DNA from: Shigella phage Shfl2
Sequence record: HM035025
Reading direction: 5' to 3' (one strand)
DNA: 64,000 nucleotides
Below the pieces are notes generated by a model that saw only the letters and a list, made by a program, of their open reading frames with translations, was not told where the DNA came from and did not search any database. Within the stretch, counting starts at the first letter, position 1; each line of letters opens with the position of its first letter. Both the position numbers and the translations under genes were made by a program. Of this stretch, positions 2,400 to 63,070 are shown one piece after another.

Positions 2400-2465
2400 G
2401 TATCAGTAGTTGATAGTTGTATAATACCATGGAAGAACAGGGATGTAAACAGTTTTGTGAAAAAA
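2400..2465 (-). promoter_or_regulatory. T4 early (sigma70-like) promoter, GTTTACA -35 and TATTAT -10 on minus strand
   Basis: Reverse complement reads ...ctGTTTACAtccctgttcttccatggTATTATAcaac upstream of ORF starting near 2377. Confidence 0.45.
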
Positions 2466-2580
2466 AATTTTAAAGGTTTTGGGGAATTCTAGGGCAGAGA
2501 GGGGAAATCAAAGGATAGGATAATATATTATAAAGGGTAGAAACTAAATGATGTCTAGAGAGGCCTGGAAAGGCCTAGAT

Positions 2581-2610
2581 ACCAAAAATCCCTATCATTT
2601 AGATAGGGAT
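2581..2610 (-). terminator. Rho-independent terminator after IPIII-like gene
   Basis: 9-bp stem ATCCCTATC/GATAGGGAT with 5-nt loop, followed on minus strand by UUUUGG. Confidence 0.5.
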
Positions 2611-2616
2611 TTAAAA

Positions 2617-3183
2617 TTATTTACCCAGTTTAGTTATTATAGCTTCGGCAGCAGCTTTTAGCTTAGATGCAGTGTTAATACGATTTTTAATTTCAGTATA
2701 CGCATCGCCAAGAACATCAAGGCTATCTGAATAAACACTTACACTATTGCGTTCACTATTTGAAATAGAACCTTTAGTTTTACGATCAAAATCGGTGTAC
2801 ACGTCTTGAAGATCGCGGGCTGCCTTCTTTGCATCATCCAATGCATCAAGAGCTTTATTCAAAGCATTAACATATTTTTTAGTGTCAAACATATTCTTAG
2901 AAATTTTGACGGGTGCGCGTTCAGGAGTAGCTAAGGCAGATTTAGGAAGAACCTGTTTGCCAGATGCCAGTTTCTTAGAAATTTTAAAAAACGCTTTATT
3001 GAAATTATTTTCTTGACTCATCGTAAAAGAACTATTATCAATGTTATACATTTCAATAGCTTTAGCTTTCCACTTAAGAAAATCGCCCCGGTCTTTTGGG
3101 TCCAAGTGGAAGAATACTTTAGTAAGTTCTGCTTCAGATGGTAATTTTGCTGCTTCGGTTAAAAATTCGGCATAGGTTTTCAT
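2617..3183 (-). CDS. Internal head protein with capsid targeting sequence (IPIII-like), 188 aa
   Basis: N-terminus MKTYAEFLTE matches the T4 internal-protein CTS (MKTYQEFIAE, cleaved by gp21 after E); ATG at 3181-3183. Confidence 0.7.
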   Translation of the reverse strand: MKTYAEFLTEAAKLPSEAELTKVFFHLDPKDRGDFLKWKAKAIEMYNIDNSSFTMSQENNFNKAFFKISKKLASGKQVLPKSALATPERAPVKISKNMFDTKKYVNALNKALDALDDAKKAARDLQDVYTDFDRKTKGSISNSERNSVSVYSDSLDVLGDAYTEIKNRINTASKLKAAAEAIITKLGK

Positions 3184-3275
3184 TTAAAATCCTTGAAATA
3201 ATTTATCGGTCGGTTATTAATTATTTATTTATTACTTTGTTATTATCCGTAACAGCATTCTCTATGTGATTCAAA

Positions 3276-3305
3276 CTAAAAAGCCCCAACCTTTCGGTCG
3301 GGGCT
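3276..3305 (-). terminator. Rho-independent terminator at distal end of tRNA/stable-RNA locus
   Basis: Minus strand reads AGCCCCGACC-GAAA-GGUUGGGGCU followed by UUUUU (GNRA tetraloop). Confidence 0.6.
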
Positions 3306-3600
3306 AAGCCTTGCGGCAACCTTGTCGGGGTTCCACCTGCTAAGGCAAGTGTTTGTACGAAACGCCGGGATTCGAACCCGGTTATTAAGCAGTTGACGCT
3401 ACTCAATATTTTTAAAAGGCCATATCTCGACCATATCCGAACGTTCCGTCAAAAACGCTACTCGGCTTATGGCAAAGATATTTCCTCGAATCGATAATTC
3501 GGTGCGCCGTTTCTGCTGTGATAGTAAAGAATCAGAACACAGTAAAACTGTGGGAGAAACTATACTCCAGGGAACATCAGTCCGACGACTTACCGGTAGC
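3306..3600 (-). ncRNA. Putative small stable RNA(s), possibly equivalent to T4 rnaC/rnaD; boundaries uncertain
   Basis: GC-richer non-coding stretch between an ORF and the terminator; tRNA-like T-arm CCGGGTTCGAATCCCGG on minus strand near 3362-3378; motif GAGUAGCGU occurs twice. Confidence 0.3.
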
Positions 3601-3611
3601 GACCCGGCTTC

Positions 3612-3962
3612 TTAATATTCTTTTAAAGCATCAATATGTTCACGGCGTTTACGCCATAAATCAATTGCTTCATACGCGGATTCAACATTTCGAATTGGAC
3701 GGCATTTATATAAAGATTTGTGATTTTGATATTGTGTAGATAACGGAATTTTATCTAAAAGGTCTTTACGTTCAAAATATTCGTAACCATCTAAACCAAA
3801 TGAACGATTTTTGAGAAATTGCCAATGACCATATTCATTTTCAACATAAATATAATCTGCGTGCTGATAAAGCAAATTAATTATACGTTCAGAAATAACA
3901 GTATCATTATGATTAAAATAGAATGTTAAATCATGAACTACTAAATAAACATTACCTTTCAT
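3612..3962 (-). CDS. Hypothetical protein, 116 aa, between tRNA-Arg and stable-RNA region
   Basis: Track ORF 3612..4010 is TTG-initiated and would overlap tRNA-Arg; ATG at 3960-3962 preceded by GAGGAAAAT. Confidence 0.45.
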   Translation of the reverse strand: MKGNVYLVVHDLTFYFNHNDTVISERIINLLYQHADYIYVENEYGHWQFLKNRSFGLDGYEYFERKDLLDKIPLSTQYQNHKSLYKCRPIRNVESAYEAIDLWRKRREHIDALKEY

Positions 3963-3980
3963 ATTTTCCTCACTTATAAT

Positions 3981-4057
3981 TGGTCGAGACAGAAGGATTC
4001 TAACCTTCAACCCACGGATTAGAAGTCCGTTGCTCTATACAATTGAGCTATGCCTCG
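3981..4057 (-). tRNA. tRNA-Arg (anticodon UCU)
   Basis: Hand fold: acceptor CGAGGCA/TGTCTCG, anticodon stem ACGGA/TCCGT, loop CUUCUAA, encoded CCA; T-loop TTAGAAT is atypical. Confidence 0.7.
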
Positions 4058-4061
4058 TATT

Positions 4062-4136
4062 TGGCGGACGTGATAGGATTCGAACCTATAACCAATCGCT
4101 TAACAGGCGATCGCTCTGCCATTGAGCTACACATCC
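4062..4136 (-). tRNA. tRNA-Asn (anticodon GUU)
   Basis: Hand fold: acceptor GGATGTG/CACGTCC, anticodon stem ATCGC/GCGAT, loop CUGUUAA, T-loop TTCGAAT, encoded CCA. Confidence 0.8.
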
Positions 4137-4140
4137 AAAT

Positions 4141-4227
4141 TGGTGGGGAGTGATGGAGTCGAACCACCCGAGTCGCAATGACAATGGATTTACAGTCCAC
4201 ACCGCTACCTCTACGGGATAACTCCCC
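4141..4227 (-). tRNA. tRNA-Tyr (anticodon GUA), long variable arm
   Basis: Hand fold: acceptor GGGGAGT/ACTCCCC, anticodon loop CUGUAAA, long variable arm typical of bacterial-type Tyr, T-loop TTCGACT, encoded CCA. Confidence 0.75.
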
Positions 4228-4236
4228 AAATTAATT

Positions 4237-4311
4237 TGGTGGCCCTGGGTGGAATTGAACCACCATCTGGCGATTATGAGTCGCTTGCTTGAACCTTCCA
4301 GCTACAGGGCC
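4237..4311 (-). tRNA. tRNA with CAU anticodon, probably Ile (lysidine-type) as in T4 tRNA-Ile; Met not excluded
   Basis: Hand fold: acceptor GGCCCTG/CAGGGCC, anticodon loop CUCAUAA, encoded CCA; position corresponds to T4 tRNA-Ile. Confidence 0.7.
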
Positions 4312-4312
4312 T

Positions 4313-4388
4313 TGGTGCTGATTGACGGAATCGAACCGCCGACGTCCTCATTACAAGTGAGGTGCTCTACCTACTGAGCTAAATCAGC
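4313..4388 (-). tRNA. tRNA-Thr (anticodon UGU)
   Basis: Hand fold: acceptor GCTGATT/AATCAGC, anticodon stem CCTCA/TGAGG, loop CUUGUAA, encoded CCA. Confidence 0.8.
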
Positions 4389-4390
4389 AA

Positions 4391-4477
4391 CGGAGGCGAT
4401 AGGATTTGAACCTATGAGTCGCCGGAGCGACTGCCGGTTTTCAAGACCGGTGCATTAAACCACTCTGCCACGCCTCC
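4391..4477 (-). tRNA. tRNA-Ser (anticodon UGA), long variable arm
   Basis: Hand fold: acceptor GGAGGCG/CGCCTCC, anticodon stem CCGGT/ACCGG, loop CUUGAAA, T-loop TTCAAAT; no encoded CCA. Confidence 0.8.
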
Positions 4478-4479
4478 AG

Positions 4480-4553
4480 TCTCCGTGGCAGGATTTGAAC
4501 CTACGACATTCTGCTCCCAAAGCAGACGCTCTACCAAACTGAGCTACACGGAG
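4480..4553 (-). tRNA. tRNA-Pro (anticodon UGG)
   Basis: Hand fold: acceptor CTCCGTG/CACGGAG, anticodon stem TCTGC/GCAGA, loop UUUGGGA, T-loop TTCAAAT; no encoded CCA. Confidence 0.8.
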
Positions 4554-4563
4554 TAAATTAAAT

Positions 4564-4637
<74 letters not shown>

Positions 4638-4642
4638 AAATT

Positions 4643-4729
4643 TGGTGCGAGAAGTGGGACTCGAACCCACAAGGAAATCATTCCGCAGCATTTTAAGTGC
4701 TGTGCCTTTACCAATTTGGCCATTCTCGC
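4643..4729 (-). tRNA. tRNA-Leu (anticodon UAA), long variable arm
   Basis: Hand fold: acceptor GCGAGAA/TTCTCGC, anticodon stem CAGCA/TGCTG, loop CUUAAAA, T-loop TTCGAGT, encoded CCA. Confidence 0.8.
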
Positions 4730-4730
4730 G

Positions 4731-4803
4731 CTGGGAATAAAGGACTCGAACCTTTGCATCCTGGAATCAAAATCCAGTGCCTTACCAACTTGGCTAATTC
4801 CCA
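4731..4803 (-). tRNA. tRNA-Gln (anticodon UUG)
   Basis: Hand fold: acceptor TGGGAAT/ATTCCCA, anticodon stem CTGGA/TCCAG, loop UUUUGAU, T-loop TTCGAGT; no encoded CCA; abuts tRNA-Leu as in the T4 Gln-Leu pair. Confidence 0.8.
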
Positions 4804-4900
4804 ATTATTAACAAAGGCTCTCTAACAAGAACCCTTGATGATAGAGGGTATTAATCAGTGCGGTATGAGTTAATAATAACAAATAATTCTTAAAGCATAT

Positions 4901-5188
4901 TTACCATTTATGATGATACATACTTACGATGCATTCAAGACCCAAAGGATTCTTGAAAATATCATATTCAAGAGGACCTTTTTCTGTTTCAATAAAGAAA
5001 TCAAAATTTACTGTATTAAATTTACGGTCTTCCTTTACTAATTTAACTTGAGAAGATGAACGGTCAATGTAAACCTTTTCAACTTCAAAACATGTTAAAA
5101 TGCCATAATCATCGATCAAGGCTTTAGCTGCTTCTTGATCATATTTATATCCATTTTCAATGGATGATACTTTCGCATAAAGAATCAT
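4901..5188 (-). CDS. Hypothetical protein, 95 aa, third gene of early operon in IPI locus
   Basis: Track ORF; ATG at 5186-5188 with AGAGG RBS inside upstream gene; 2-nt gap to upstream stop. Confidence 0.5.
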   Translation of the reverse strand: MILYAKVSSIENGYKYDQEAAKALIDDYGILTCFEVEKVYIDRSSSQVKLVKEDRKFNTVNFDFFIETEKGPLEYDIFKNPLGLECIVSMYHHKW

Positions 5189-5190
5189 TA

Positions 5191-5601
5191 TCAGCCTCTA
5201 TCAACGATAGTATGAGTATGGGCATTTACGATTTGCCACCAGTCGAAACGATTGGAACCATAATCTGGTTTATTTTCATTTTCTTTAATGATATCACGCA
5301 GCTTATCTTCTGTTTCAGCATACGCAATTAAATCATCATACCCACCGCAAGGATAATAATTATCACCTGCGAATAAAAGAAAATTTACCTTAGATGGATT
5401 TACGTAATAATGGTCTTTAGGATATTTAGTTCCTCTCCAATCAGTTACTTCAACATAACGGTAAGAAAATCCATTTTTACTTTCAATCCAACTCCACGCT
5501 TCAAAAGGAGTATTAAAAACTCTATCAGGTATTAAATTACCTTCAAAATGAGAAGGATTTGCATAATCCCCGGCATAAACATAATATTCGTTAATACTCA
5601 T
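5191..5601 (-). CDS. Hypothetical protein, 136 aa, Tyr/Trp-rich
   Basis: Track ORF; ATG at 5599-5601 with GGTGA RBS; adjacent to upstream stop. Confidence 0.55.
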   Translation of the reverse strand: MSINEYYVYAGDYANPSHFEGNLIPDRVFNTPFEAWSWIESKNGFSYRYVEVTDWRGTKYPKDHYYVNPSKVNFLLFAGDNYYPCGGYDDLIAYAETEDKLRDIIKENENKPDYGSNRFDWWQIVNAHTHTIVDRG

Positions 5602-5787
5602 TTATTCACCTTTAGAAATTTTATCCATAACGATAGCGATTAAACCAATTAAAAATGCTACTACAAGTGAAAACACATTTTCTGTTGTAGTTAATAATCC
5701 GCATATAAATCCAGCAAACATTGAAAAACTAAAAGCGGAAGCAGAAATTGCAATAGCAACATTTCGAATTAATTCACAACGTTTCAT
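5602..5787 (-). CDS. Small membrane protein, 61 aa, 2 predicted TM helices
   Basis: Track ORF; ATG at 5785-5787 with GAGGAG RBS; hydrophobic AIAISASAFSFSMFAGFICGLL and FSLVVAFLIGLIAIVM. Confidence 0.5.
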   Translation of the reverse strand: MKRCELIRNVAIAISASAFSFSMFAGFICGLLTTTENVFSLVVAFLIGLIAIVMDKISKGE

Positions 5788-5799
5788 TTTATTCTCCTC

Positions 5800-5855
5800 A
5801 GTAGTTGATAGGGTAATAGTATCACAACTAAAACCCTATGTAAACAACTTTGTGA
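5800..5855 (-). promoter_or_regulatory. T4 early promoter (GTTTACA -35, TACTAT -10) with inverted repeat ATAGGGT/ACCCTAT bracketing the -10
   Basis: Reverse complement reads aaagttGTTTACAtagggttttagttgtgaTACTATtaccctat; inverted repeat at 5808-5839. Confidence 0.5.
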
Positions 5856-5857
5856 AA

Positions 5858-6115
5858 TTATTTTAAATCTTCTAATCGTTTCTTCATCTTAGAACCGTTC
5901 TTAGCGATTTCGCCTGCATCAGAGCATAATGCTAAAAGCGCTTTAACTTTAGTTTGGTCTCCTTTAAAAGATGAAGGATCGACTGCAGCAGCAAGTTCTT
6001 TAATACGAGAAAAAAGACGCTCAGCTTCAGCTAAAGCCATTCCAAGTTTTACTTCCATACCGTGGGAAGATTCAGTGATAGTAGTTTTTGTAGCAAACTC
6101 TTTGAAAGTTTTCAT
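5858..6115 (-). CDS. Internal head protein with capsid targeting sequence, IPI-locus variant, 85 aa
   Basis: N-terminus MKTFKEFATK...ITE matches the T4 IP CTS; sits at the T4 ipI position upstream of 57B; sequence differs from my recollection of T4 IPI. Confidence 0.65.
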   Translation of the reverse strand: MKTFKEFATKTTITESSHGMEVKLGMALAEAERLFSRIKELAAAVDPSSFKGDQTKVKALLALCSDAGEIAKNGSKMKKRLEDLK

Positions 6116-6124
6116 TTTATTTTC

Positions 6125-6185
6125 CTAATTAATTTTGATGAGGTAATAGTATCACTACCTCATCAGCATGTAAACAACTTTGTGA
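6125..6185 (-). promoter_or_regulatory. T4 early promoter with 10-bp inverted repeat TGATGAGGTA/TACCTCATCA around the -10
   Basis: Reverse complement reads aaagttGTTTACAtgctgatgaggtagtgaTACTATtacctcatca; inverted repeat at 6135-6164. Confidence 0.5.
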
Positions 6186-6187
6186 AA

Positions 6188-6884
<697 letters not shown>

Positions 6885-6885
<1 letters not shown>

Positions 6886-7610
6886 TATAGTACCTTTAGT
6901 GTATTTTTAATTTTAGAAAAAAGTTCTTCAAGAGAACCATCGTTTGTAATTACTAAATCGCCATCACGAATTGGCAATCCAGCTTCTGTAATATGTGTAT
7001 CATTGGATTTTTGACCAGGACGAACTACATGAATTACTGTAGCACCCATCGCCCTAGCCGCATCCATTTCATGATCTTGACGGGTATCAGGAACGATATA
7101 ATAATCATAACCTGAGTTAAATTTATCAAGATAATCTAAAGCAAATAATTTTACCCAATACATGCGGTCGAAGTTATTAACAATCAAATCCGTACCTAGG
7201 GCTTGCATCAGACGACGGACTGACCATTGATCTTCAATATTATTTATAACGTCAATAATCTTGTTAAATGCTACGGAATTAACTGATTCTTGTCCTTCGT
7301 CATCAAAAACAAACACACCCTTAATTGGGCTTTTACCATTAAGATAGCAAAATGCTTGTTCCATAATCGTGATTACTTCTGATTTAGTCAGATTTAAATT
7401 AGTCTCACGATCATAGTCAATTCCTTCAAACTCTTTACGAGTTAAGCAAGGATAGTCAGTGTTTTCTGCAAATACTCCCCATGCATAAGCCAATGCATCC
7501 TTAATAGGACCAGCAAGTTGGTATTTAACTGCAGAATAATTGCTCATGATAAAATCAGCAGTAGTATCTTTTCCACTACGCTTTACACCACTTAAAAAGA
7601 TTAGTTTCAT
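6885..7610 (-). CDS. 1: Gp1 deoxynucleoside monophosphate kinase, 241 aa
   Basis: Length and N-terminal P-loop-like SGVKRSGKDT match T4 gp1; synteny. Confidence 0.9.
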
Positions 7611-43022: not shown

Positions 43023-43640
43023 ATGTACCACTTTGTATATGAAACAACAAATCTAATAAATGGTAAAAAGTATATAGGAAAACACTCTACTGATGACTTG
43101 AATGATGGTTACCTTGGTTCCGGTAAGGCAATTCAGCAGGCTATAAAGAAATATGGTGAAAACAATTTCTCTAGAACAATACTAAAAGAGTTTAAAACTT
43201 CCGAAGAAGCGTACATGTATGAAGAAGAAATTATAACTCCTGAAATAATAAAAAGCAAAAATTATTATAATATGAAACCTGGTGGAATTGGTGGAATTGT
43301 TATGACTACAGAGGTTATAGCAAAGATGAAAGAATCTTCCGCTAAGAGATTTGAAAACTCACCGGGCACGGTATTAGGTACAACTTGTTACACTAATGGA
43401 ACTAAAAATATTTTTATTAAGCCTGGAGAACTTGTTCCAGAAGGATTTGTAAAAGGGATGGTTCATCCTAATAGAAAGTCCAGAAAAGGATGTAAAGTCA
43501 AACCGACTACCACAGGAACTTTTTGGGTCAATAATGGTGCAATAAATAAATTAATACAACCAGACGGTATTATTCCCGACGGATTTATTAAAGGTCGTCT
43601 CATGAAAAGAGATTCTAAAGGCAAATTTAGTAAGGCATAA
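43023..43640 (+). CDS. segD: SegD GIY-YIG homing endonuclease, 205 aa
   Basis: GIY-YIG-type N-terminus (KKYIGKH...YLGSG); position between inh and uvsW as in T4. Confidence 0.85.
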   Translation: MYHFVYETTNLINGKKYIGKHSTDDLNDGYLGSGKAIQQAIKKYGENNFSRTILKEFKTSEEAYMYEEEIITPEIIKSKNYYNMKPGGIGGIVMTTEVIAKMKESSAKRFENSPGTVLGTTCYTNGTKNIFIKPGELVPEGFVKGMVHPNRKSRKGCKVKPTTTGTFWVNNGAINKLIQPDGIIPDGFIKGRLMKRDSKGKFSKA

Positions 43641-62990: not shown

Positions 62991-63004
62991 TTTATTCTCC
63001 TTTG

Positions 63005-63060
63005 TTTGTGTAAGATAATACTATCACAAAGGAGCTATACTGTAAACAACTTTATGCAAT
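63005..63060 (-). promoter_or_regulatory. T4 early promoter (GTTTACA -35, TAGTAT -10)
   Basis: Reverse complement reads aaagttGTTTACAgtatagctcctttgtgaTAGTATtatc. Confidence 0.5.
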
Positions 63061-63070
63061 CTTTGGAAAA

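Follow-up and report, generated by a model that had tools for sequence, protein, structure and literature searches.

Which gene fills the internal protein slot between 57B and trna.4 in this phage, and which host defence, if any, would its product act on? An earlier note on the 64-kb stretch of DNA analysed here (the window) had proposed a novel internal protein at the variable IPI locus, followed by a three-gene early operon standing where T4 has segB and ipI. We find that the window is a segment of a Tequatrovirus (T4-like) genome, whose best match over 24 kb, to phages such as vB_EcoM_G50, has ~96.5% identity. As transcribed from the minus strand, the genes run in the order gene 1, 57A, 57B, ip5, trna.4, trna.3, trna.2 and ten tRNA genes (Table 1). 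The four minus-strand open reading frames of 85, 61, 136 and 95 aa, as well as the N-terminus MKTFKEFATKTTITE, lie where the note had placed them. Taken as a whole, the region is very probably the IPI hyperplastic locus of Tequatrovirus in an Ip5-only configuration, which we consider the best explanation for all of its features.

Among T4-like phages, the Ip5 locus is commonplace and already catalogued. When positions 4805-6185 were used as a megablast query, 850 phage records matched, 305 of them with at least 80% query coverage, and the Ip5-only arrangement was recovered as one collinear, full-length piece in PP01, pSs-1, Ec_YwIITB1, sb2 and sb3. The upstream neighbour, 57B, is identical to its T4 counterpart at 151 of 152 residues. 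Public annotation and papers published from 1994 to 2025 already cover the gene and its name, the structure of the cassette and the T4 genes downstream, and as a genome finding we add nothing to them. No intrinsic terminators were detected in a scan of positions 4700-6800, and Pfam and NCBIfam scans with all four proteins (Ip5, Trna.4, Trna.3 and Trna.2) returned nothing above threshold.

Table 1. Features of the Ip5 locus and its flanks, in order of transcription (positions are those of the window)
Feature	Position	Strand	Basis
57B (Acb1, anti-CBASS nuclease), upstream neighbour of ip5	6188-6646	-	Pfam PF23474 Acb1, E = 3.9e-60
Repeat copy 1: 57B 3′ end, early promoter, hairpin, RBS, ip5 ATGAAA start	6110-6203	-	direct repeats D1/D2, promoter scan, folding
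ip5, internal head protein Ip5, 85 aa	5858-6115	-	identity to RB15 Ip5; phrog_3499
ip5 codons 1-15, capsid targeting sequence MKTFKEFATKTTITE, predicted gp21 motif I-T-E at its end	6071-6115	-	alignment with T4 IPI propeptide
Repeat copy 2: ip5 3′ end, trna.4 early promoter, hairpin, RBS, ATGAAA start	5782-5873	-	repeat, promoter and folding scans
trna.4, 61 aa, predicted two-helix membrane protein	5602-5787	-	T4 Trna.4 identity, hydropathy profile, phrog_1692
trna.3, 136 aa, acidic, aromatic-rich, alpha/beta model	5191-5601	-	T4 Trna.3 identity; PF26894 of homologues
trna.2, 95 aa	4901-5188	-	T4 Trna.2 identity, phrog_2023
trna.2 to tRNA-Gln spacer, 97 nt	4804-4900	-	100% identical to T4 spacer
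Ten tRNA genes: Gln, Leu, Gly, Pro, Ser, Thr, Met/Ile-CAU, Tyr, Asn, Arg	3981-4803	-	ARAGORN, Rfam

The 85-aa protein had been described as novel. Because it is identical at 85 of 85 residues to the named Ip5 of RB15 (Z35082.1), T6, RB14, RB32, PST and pSs-1, we identify it by sequence as the known Ip5, the gene for which was named in 1994, and the claim of novelty has to be withdrawn. The identity is to a named internal protein, not to one of known specificity. The RB15 entry, of 1,448 nt, is annotated 'ip5: Ip5', and reviews credit Repoila et al. 1994 with the internal proteins that include Ip5 (PMC12373910, PMC3012670, PMC9026906). Orthologous genes are labeled ip5 in PP01, Ip5 in RB14 and ipV in PST in the annotated regions, while the RB32 annotation reads 'similar to RB15 T6 T2 RB70 Ip5, RB69ORF127c, replaces ipI'. 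Two relatives depart slightly from the common sequence: T2 Ip5 has a one-residue deletion relative to the protein in the window, and RB70 Ip5 is 95% identical by alignment (92% in the hit table). A PHROGs search assigned Ip5 to phrog_3499, 'internal head protein', over residues 1-85 (E = 1.2e-49).

The assignment of the gene to the variable IPI locus as an ORF with a capsid targeting sequence (CTS) was borne out by its aromatics F4 and F7, its I-T-E motif and its position between 57B and trna.4, which is one of the two IP loci, the other being e-denV. The Ip5 N-terminus, MKTFKEF, aligns with the N-termini of IPI, IPII and IPIII. For IPIII, capsid targeting depends on the aromatics at positions 4 and 7, and the gp21 protease recognizes the site L/I-x-E (PMC9026906). 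In BLASTP, MKTFKEFATKTTITE of Ip5 aligns with the T4 IPI propeptide MKTFKEFTSTTTPVSTITE (next residue, A), which brings I13-T14-E15 of Ip5 onto ITE19 of IPI, where cleavage produces the 76-residue IPI* (PMC3012670). We regard the CTS match as specific, since only two ORFs in the window begin with MKT[FY]x[ETD]F. A 188-aa ORF at positions 2617-3183 likewise bears a CTS. Given both the CTS and the L/I-x-E site for gp21, ip5 can be recognized as a true internal-protein gene standing in for ipI. The two aromatics, the alignment of I-T-E with ITE19 and the rare N-terminus also lead us to predict the fate of the protein. Under these sequence rules, Ip5 would be made with a 15-residue CTS and would enter the prohead core. 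The gp21 protease would then cut after Ile13-Thr14-Glu15, leaving a basic protein of 70 residues (residues 16-85, with Ser16 at the new N-terminus; computed pI ~9.2, 13 K+R), and this mature form, a predicted two-helix hairpin, would be packed and injected with the DNA.

T4 IPI shares with Ip5 the locus, the promoter repeat, a homologous propeptide (MKTFKEF...ITE) and a similar size and basic charge, however, the mature domains are unrelated. BLASTP similarity between the two ends at residue 22, and tblastn of IPI on the window matched the CTS and nothing else. The comparison with IPI, IPII, IPIII, Ip6, Ip7 and Ip9 likewise found no similarity to Ip5 outside the propeptide. We also considered the 85-aa ORF as a diverged IPI or Ip6, and rejected this because the propeptide alone is held in common. 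The predicted structure differs as well. In IPI*, helices at the N- and C-termini flank two beta sheets (PMC3012670), whereas the AF2 model of Ip5 has two long helices (residues 17-44 and 54-84, mean pLDDT 71), which makes Ip5 an all-helical hairpin by prediction, without the IPI* fold. A Foldseek search of the PDB with this model returned only generic helical hairpins, such as the LSD1 tower and designed bundles, with no hit reaching E <= 0.001, and a PDB sequence search gave no significant match.

Ip5 ranks with the more widely distributed internal proteins of T-even phages. A tblastn search matched 495 phage records, 176 of them at 99% identity or higher, and the family spans three genera, Tequatrovirus, Mosigvirus and Gaprivervirus. 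The Mosigvirus and Gaprivervirus homologues are 48-54% identical and are encoded at the other IP locus, between e and denV. Conserved motifs along both helices, as well as the single Cys, are retained across all three genera, and the Ip5 alignment shows a nearly invariant mature region with a variable propeptide and loop. The family is confined to T4-like phages. A profile search among 1.84 billion representatives found only 3, so distant relatives offer no hint of function, and a word-indexed homologue search yielded only 5 clusters. A literature search for 'Ip5' with Tequatrovirus retrieved no papers.

What, then, would Ip5 do once injected? Because its mature part is unlike IPI* and the structure searches gave no informative match, we argue from the locus and by analogy, and on these grounds the most likely role is the neutralization of a host defence directed against incoming DNA. 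Ip1, Ip2 and Ip3 each block one distinct GmrSD without cross-protection (PMC12373910). We also count the neighboring gene by analogy, as 57B is Acb1, an anti-CBASS protein. The basic charge of the mature protein would also suit a DNA-associated head filler that contributes to charge neutralization or DNA ejection, has no specific host target and is interchangeable with other IPs. Lysines of internal proteins do contact DNA phosphates in T4 heads (PMC3012670), and the assays of ip4-10 have so far yielded no target. We nonetheless judge a head filler to be improbable. All three T4 IPs have specific targets, and the mature region of Ip5 is nearly invariant beside a variable propeptide and loop, with motifs retained in three genera despite identities of 48-54%, a pattern that points to a folded surface with a specific interaction as opposed to bulk charge.

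If Ip5 does neutralize a defence, the published work narrows which one. According to the proposal of Silas et al. 2025, every protein encoded at either Ip locus acts against a GmrSD variant (PMC12373910). The suggestion in the earlier note that the protein inhibits a different host nuclease is thus plausible and was already in print, however, ip4-10 gave no reproducible inhibition when assayed against additional active GmrSD variants (Silas et al. 2025, PMC12373910). From the standard nomenclature, we infer that the 'ip5' of that ip4-10 panel is the protein described here. In addition, T2 and T6 are restricted by GmrSD-CT596, -ECOR21 and -ECOR17 (PMC12373910), and both of these phages encode Ip5. 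The first of the three is the GmrSD from E. coli CT596 that IPI* inhibits, which sets Ip5 apart from IPI*. The target of Ip5 is not among the eight GmrSD systems already examined.

These observations bear differently on the candidate targets. Ip5 could inhibit a subtype of the GmrSD family of Type IV restriction enzymes outside those assayed so far, as it sits in the ipI slot and falls under the published proposal for both Ip loci, and as the three T4 Ips each inhibit a distinct GmrSD without cross-protection (PMC12373910). The lack of a reproducible effect of ip4-10 on the additional active GmrSD groups, the restriction of the Ip5 carriers T2 and T6 by three characterized GmrSDs and the absence of any sequence or predicted-fold likeness to IPI* all count against this, and we view it as a real possibility that we would nevertheless bet against. 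That the target is a defence of another kind than GmrSD strikes us as rather unlikely. We also advance, tentatively and with similar doubt, the wider analogy-based proposal that Ip5 may be an injected inhibitor either of a non-GmrSD defence or of a GmrSD subtype beyond the clusters assayed. This is kept in consideration by the conservation across three genera, the predicted hairpin unlike IPI*, the negative ip4-10 results and the restriction of T2 and T6. If true, it would widen the range of targets for injected T-even proteins. The target of Ip5 bears on host-range prediction for therapeutic T4-like phages, and for finding it the window is no more tractable than T6 or RB14.

The sequences flanking ip5 suggest how such a gene could be gained or lost. 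The gene forms a 330-bp cassette between two direct repeats of ~92 nt that are 84% identical and spaced 328-330 nt apart. On the coding strand, each repeat takes in the end of the preceding gene with its stop codon, followed by a promoter, an RBS and ATGAAA. Both copies carry GAT TTA AAA TAA, and both upstream genes end accordingly in DLK before the stop, with DDLK in 57B and EDLK in Ip5. A promoter scan located the early promoter GTTTACA-N17-TACTAT, with an extended TG, upstream of both ip5 and trna.4, the -10 boxes lying near positions 6146 and 5816, respectively. The two promoters fit TTTACW-N17-TAYWAT, the PeSL promoter consensus for the PST/T4 pair (Comeau et al., PMC4122927). A hairpin spans the -10 box in copy 1 (-17.4 kcal/mol, z = -3.7) and in copy 2 (-19.3 kcal/mol, z = -3.3), and the stems of the two copies differ in sequence.

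These repeats resemble the PeSL cassettes of T4-type phages (Arbiol 2010; Comeau 2014) in combining an early promoter, a stem-loop, an RBS and a start codon, and in flanking a variable ORF of a hyperplastic region on either side. They differ in that the stem-loop in the window encloses the -10 hexamer, whereas that of published PeSLs lies just upstream of the promoter, and in that the repeat in the window takes in the final four codons of the preceding gene. The Ip5 genes of RB15, T6, T2, RB70, RB14, RB32 and PST share the position beside 57B, the CTS and the flanking promoter repeat. Some of these phages add further cassettes (Ip6 in T6 and PST, IpI in RB14, Ip9 and Ip7 in RB32), whereas in the window, PP01 and pSs-1, Ip5 is the sole cassette at the locus. 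Direct repeats also flank Ip7/Ip9 in the RB32 annotation, and the promoter at the Ip5-IpI junction of RB14 is a chimera of the two repeat types, which fits gain or loss of cassettes by recombination within the repeat, as in the published PeSL model. We suggest that the promoter/stem-loop repeats are likely to serve as recombination substrates, through which ip cassettes could be added, removed or swapped between phages.

The three genes downstream of ip5 lie outside the variable cassette. T4 has trna.4 (61 aa), trna.3 (136 aa) and trna.2 (95 aa), in this order, between ipI and tRNA-Gln, and the proteins in the window are identical to these at 59/61, 134/136 and 92/95 residues, respectively (97-99%). 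Order, lengths, spacing, promoter and distance to tRNA-Gln are the same as in T4, and the differences consist of substitutions alone, at 2, 2 and 3 residues. Even between ip5 and trna.4, at positions 5788-5863, the intergenic sequence matches that between ipI and trna.4 of T4 at 97% identity, promoter included. Judged by these comparisons, the block corresponds to the conserved trna.4-.3-.2 genes of T4, and the notion of a new or replacement operon does not survive. Its tight layout with an early promoter of its own was correctly described, as the spacers measure 0 nt and 2 nt and TTTACA-N17-TACTAT lies upstream of trna.4. The three genes would be expressed from this promoter, with transcription running into the tRNA genes. 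Broida and Abelson (1985) reportedly described this promoter and these ORFs as the leader of the transcription unit for the T4 tRNAs.

The products also agree with the properties first attributed to them. Trna.4, proposed to be a membrane protein, is hydrophobic enough for two membrane helices. Trna.3, proposed to be rich in Tyr and Trp, is acidic and contains 14 Tyr, 5 Trp and 7 Phe. The conserved part is its C-terminal half (NFLLFAGDNYYPxGGY...FDWWQIV), and PF26894 is found in its homologues. A comparison of its AF2 model (alpha/beta, pLDDT 79) with the PDB gave no match with a probability above 0.2, and PDB sequence searches with Trna.3 and Trna.2 returned nothing significant. A DRT1 pull-down that enriched two T4 proteins had Trna.2 as one of them (PMC13275509).

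The statement that the locus stands where T4 has segB and ipI is correct for ipI, which ip5 replaces, and incorrect for segB, because T4 segB is located inside the tRNA cluster and not between ipI and tRNA-Gln. The gene is indeed absent here, as no SegB match was found in positions 2400-6800. That the window lacks segB and ipI is the one point in favor of a previously unseen internal protein with a new three-gene early operon in place of T4 segB. With Ip5 100% identical to a named protein and the operon matching T4 trna.4/.3/.2, this account is already refuted, and we assign it virtually no chance of being right. At the site of T4 segB the window has tRNA-Met(CAU), Tyr, Asn and Arg genes, and the order of its tRNA genes is the same as in RB14. 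We identify the cluster from its gene content and order as the known segB-free allele, matching RB14 and the T2L type. In this T2L-type allele, SegB cuts preferentially at the tRNA-Asn gene (PMC2330249).

Outside both classical internal-protein loci (57B-trna.4 and e-denV), between rnaC and e.8, lies a basic 188-aa ORF whose N-terminus is a canonical capsid targeting sequence (CTS) of 10 residues, with L-x-E at positions 8-10. The CTS of IPII and IPIII (MKTYQEFIAE) is of the same kind. The ORF is carried by 163 phage records at 86-99.5% identity (at least 95% in 162 of the 163), and it matches phrog_2280, a family of unknown function. Among the 40 records listed, its annotation is either "hypothetical protein" or not given, and none of the 40 uses the label "internal protein". 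We propose this ORF as a candidate for an unnamed injected protein.

Features identified in the window and in the T-even phage RB14
Feature	Position	Strand	Remarks
188-aa ORF	2617-3183	-	pI 9.4; N-terminus MKTYAEFLTE/AAKLPSE
rnaC	3356-3494	-	98% identical to T4
rnaD, diverged	3501-3612	-	77% identical to T4
132-aa ORF	3612-4010	-	phrog_3355; match begins at residue 17
Late-promoter motif, exact	5142-5149	-	inside 5' part of trna.2, upstream of tRNA cluster
Early-promoter hairpin	5808-5838	-	arms on either side of -10 hexamer
Early-promoter hairpin	6138-6166	-	arms on either side of -10 hexamer
Gene 57B (Acb1)	6188-6646	-	PF23474, E = 3.9e-60
Late-promoter motif, second	7241-7248	-	within gene 1; 57A-57B-ip5 lie downstream of it
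GIY-YIG seg-like ORF	43023-43607	+	33% identity to T4 SegB, 224 residues
Extra promoter/stem-loop repeat	62991-63064		near window end; 72% identical to T4 ipI-trna.4 intergenic element
RB14 Ip5-IpI promoter	3850-3931 of L002 (RB14)		chimera

The small stable RNAs known from T4 have homologues in this phage at 3356-3612, where Rfam at its gathering threshold gave no match. Between rnaD and tRNA-Arg is a 132-aa ORF that T4 lacks; its true start is probably an internal Met, because a TTG start would overlap tRNA-Arg.

Directly upstream of the internal head protein gene ip5 is 57B, and since 57B encodes Acb1, an anti-CBASS nuclease, ip5 neighbors a proven counter-defence gene. The hairpins of the two early promoters flanking ip5 have unlike stems, GATGAGGTAGTG/TACTATTACCTCATC in one copy vs ATAGGGT/ACCCTAT in the other, and therefore pairing has been kept across paralogous repeats while the sequence differs. 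These hairpins may attenuate read-through transcripts or serve as a protein-binding site. In RB14, the promoter between Ip5 and IpI is of the trna.4 type in its left half and of the ip type in its right half, a chimeric make-up that disrupts the hairpin and looks like a crossover scar inside the repeat.

The seg-like ORF, in another part of the window, is a homing endonuclease different from T4 SegB. The T4 late-promoter motif TATAAATA occurs 22 times in the window, an enrichment over the 9 matches expected, and the copy inside gene 1 could be a source of late ip5 transcripts.
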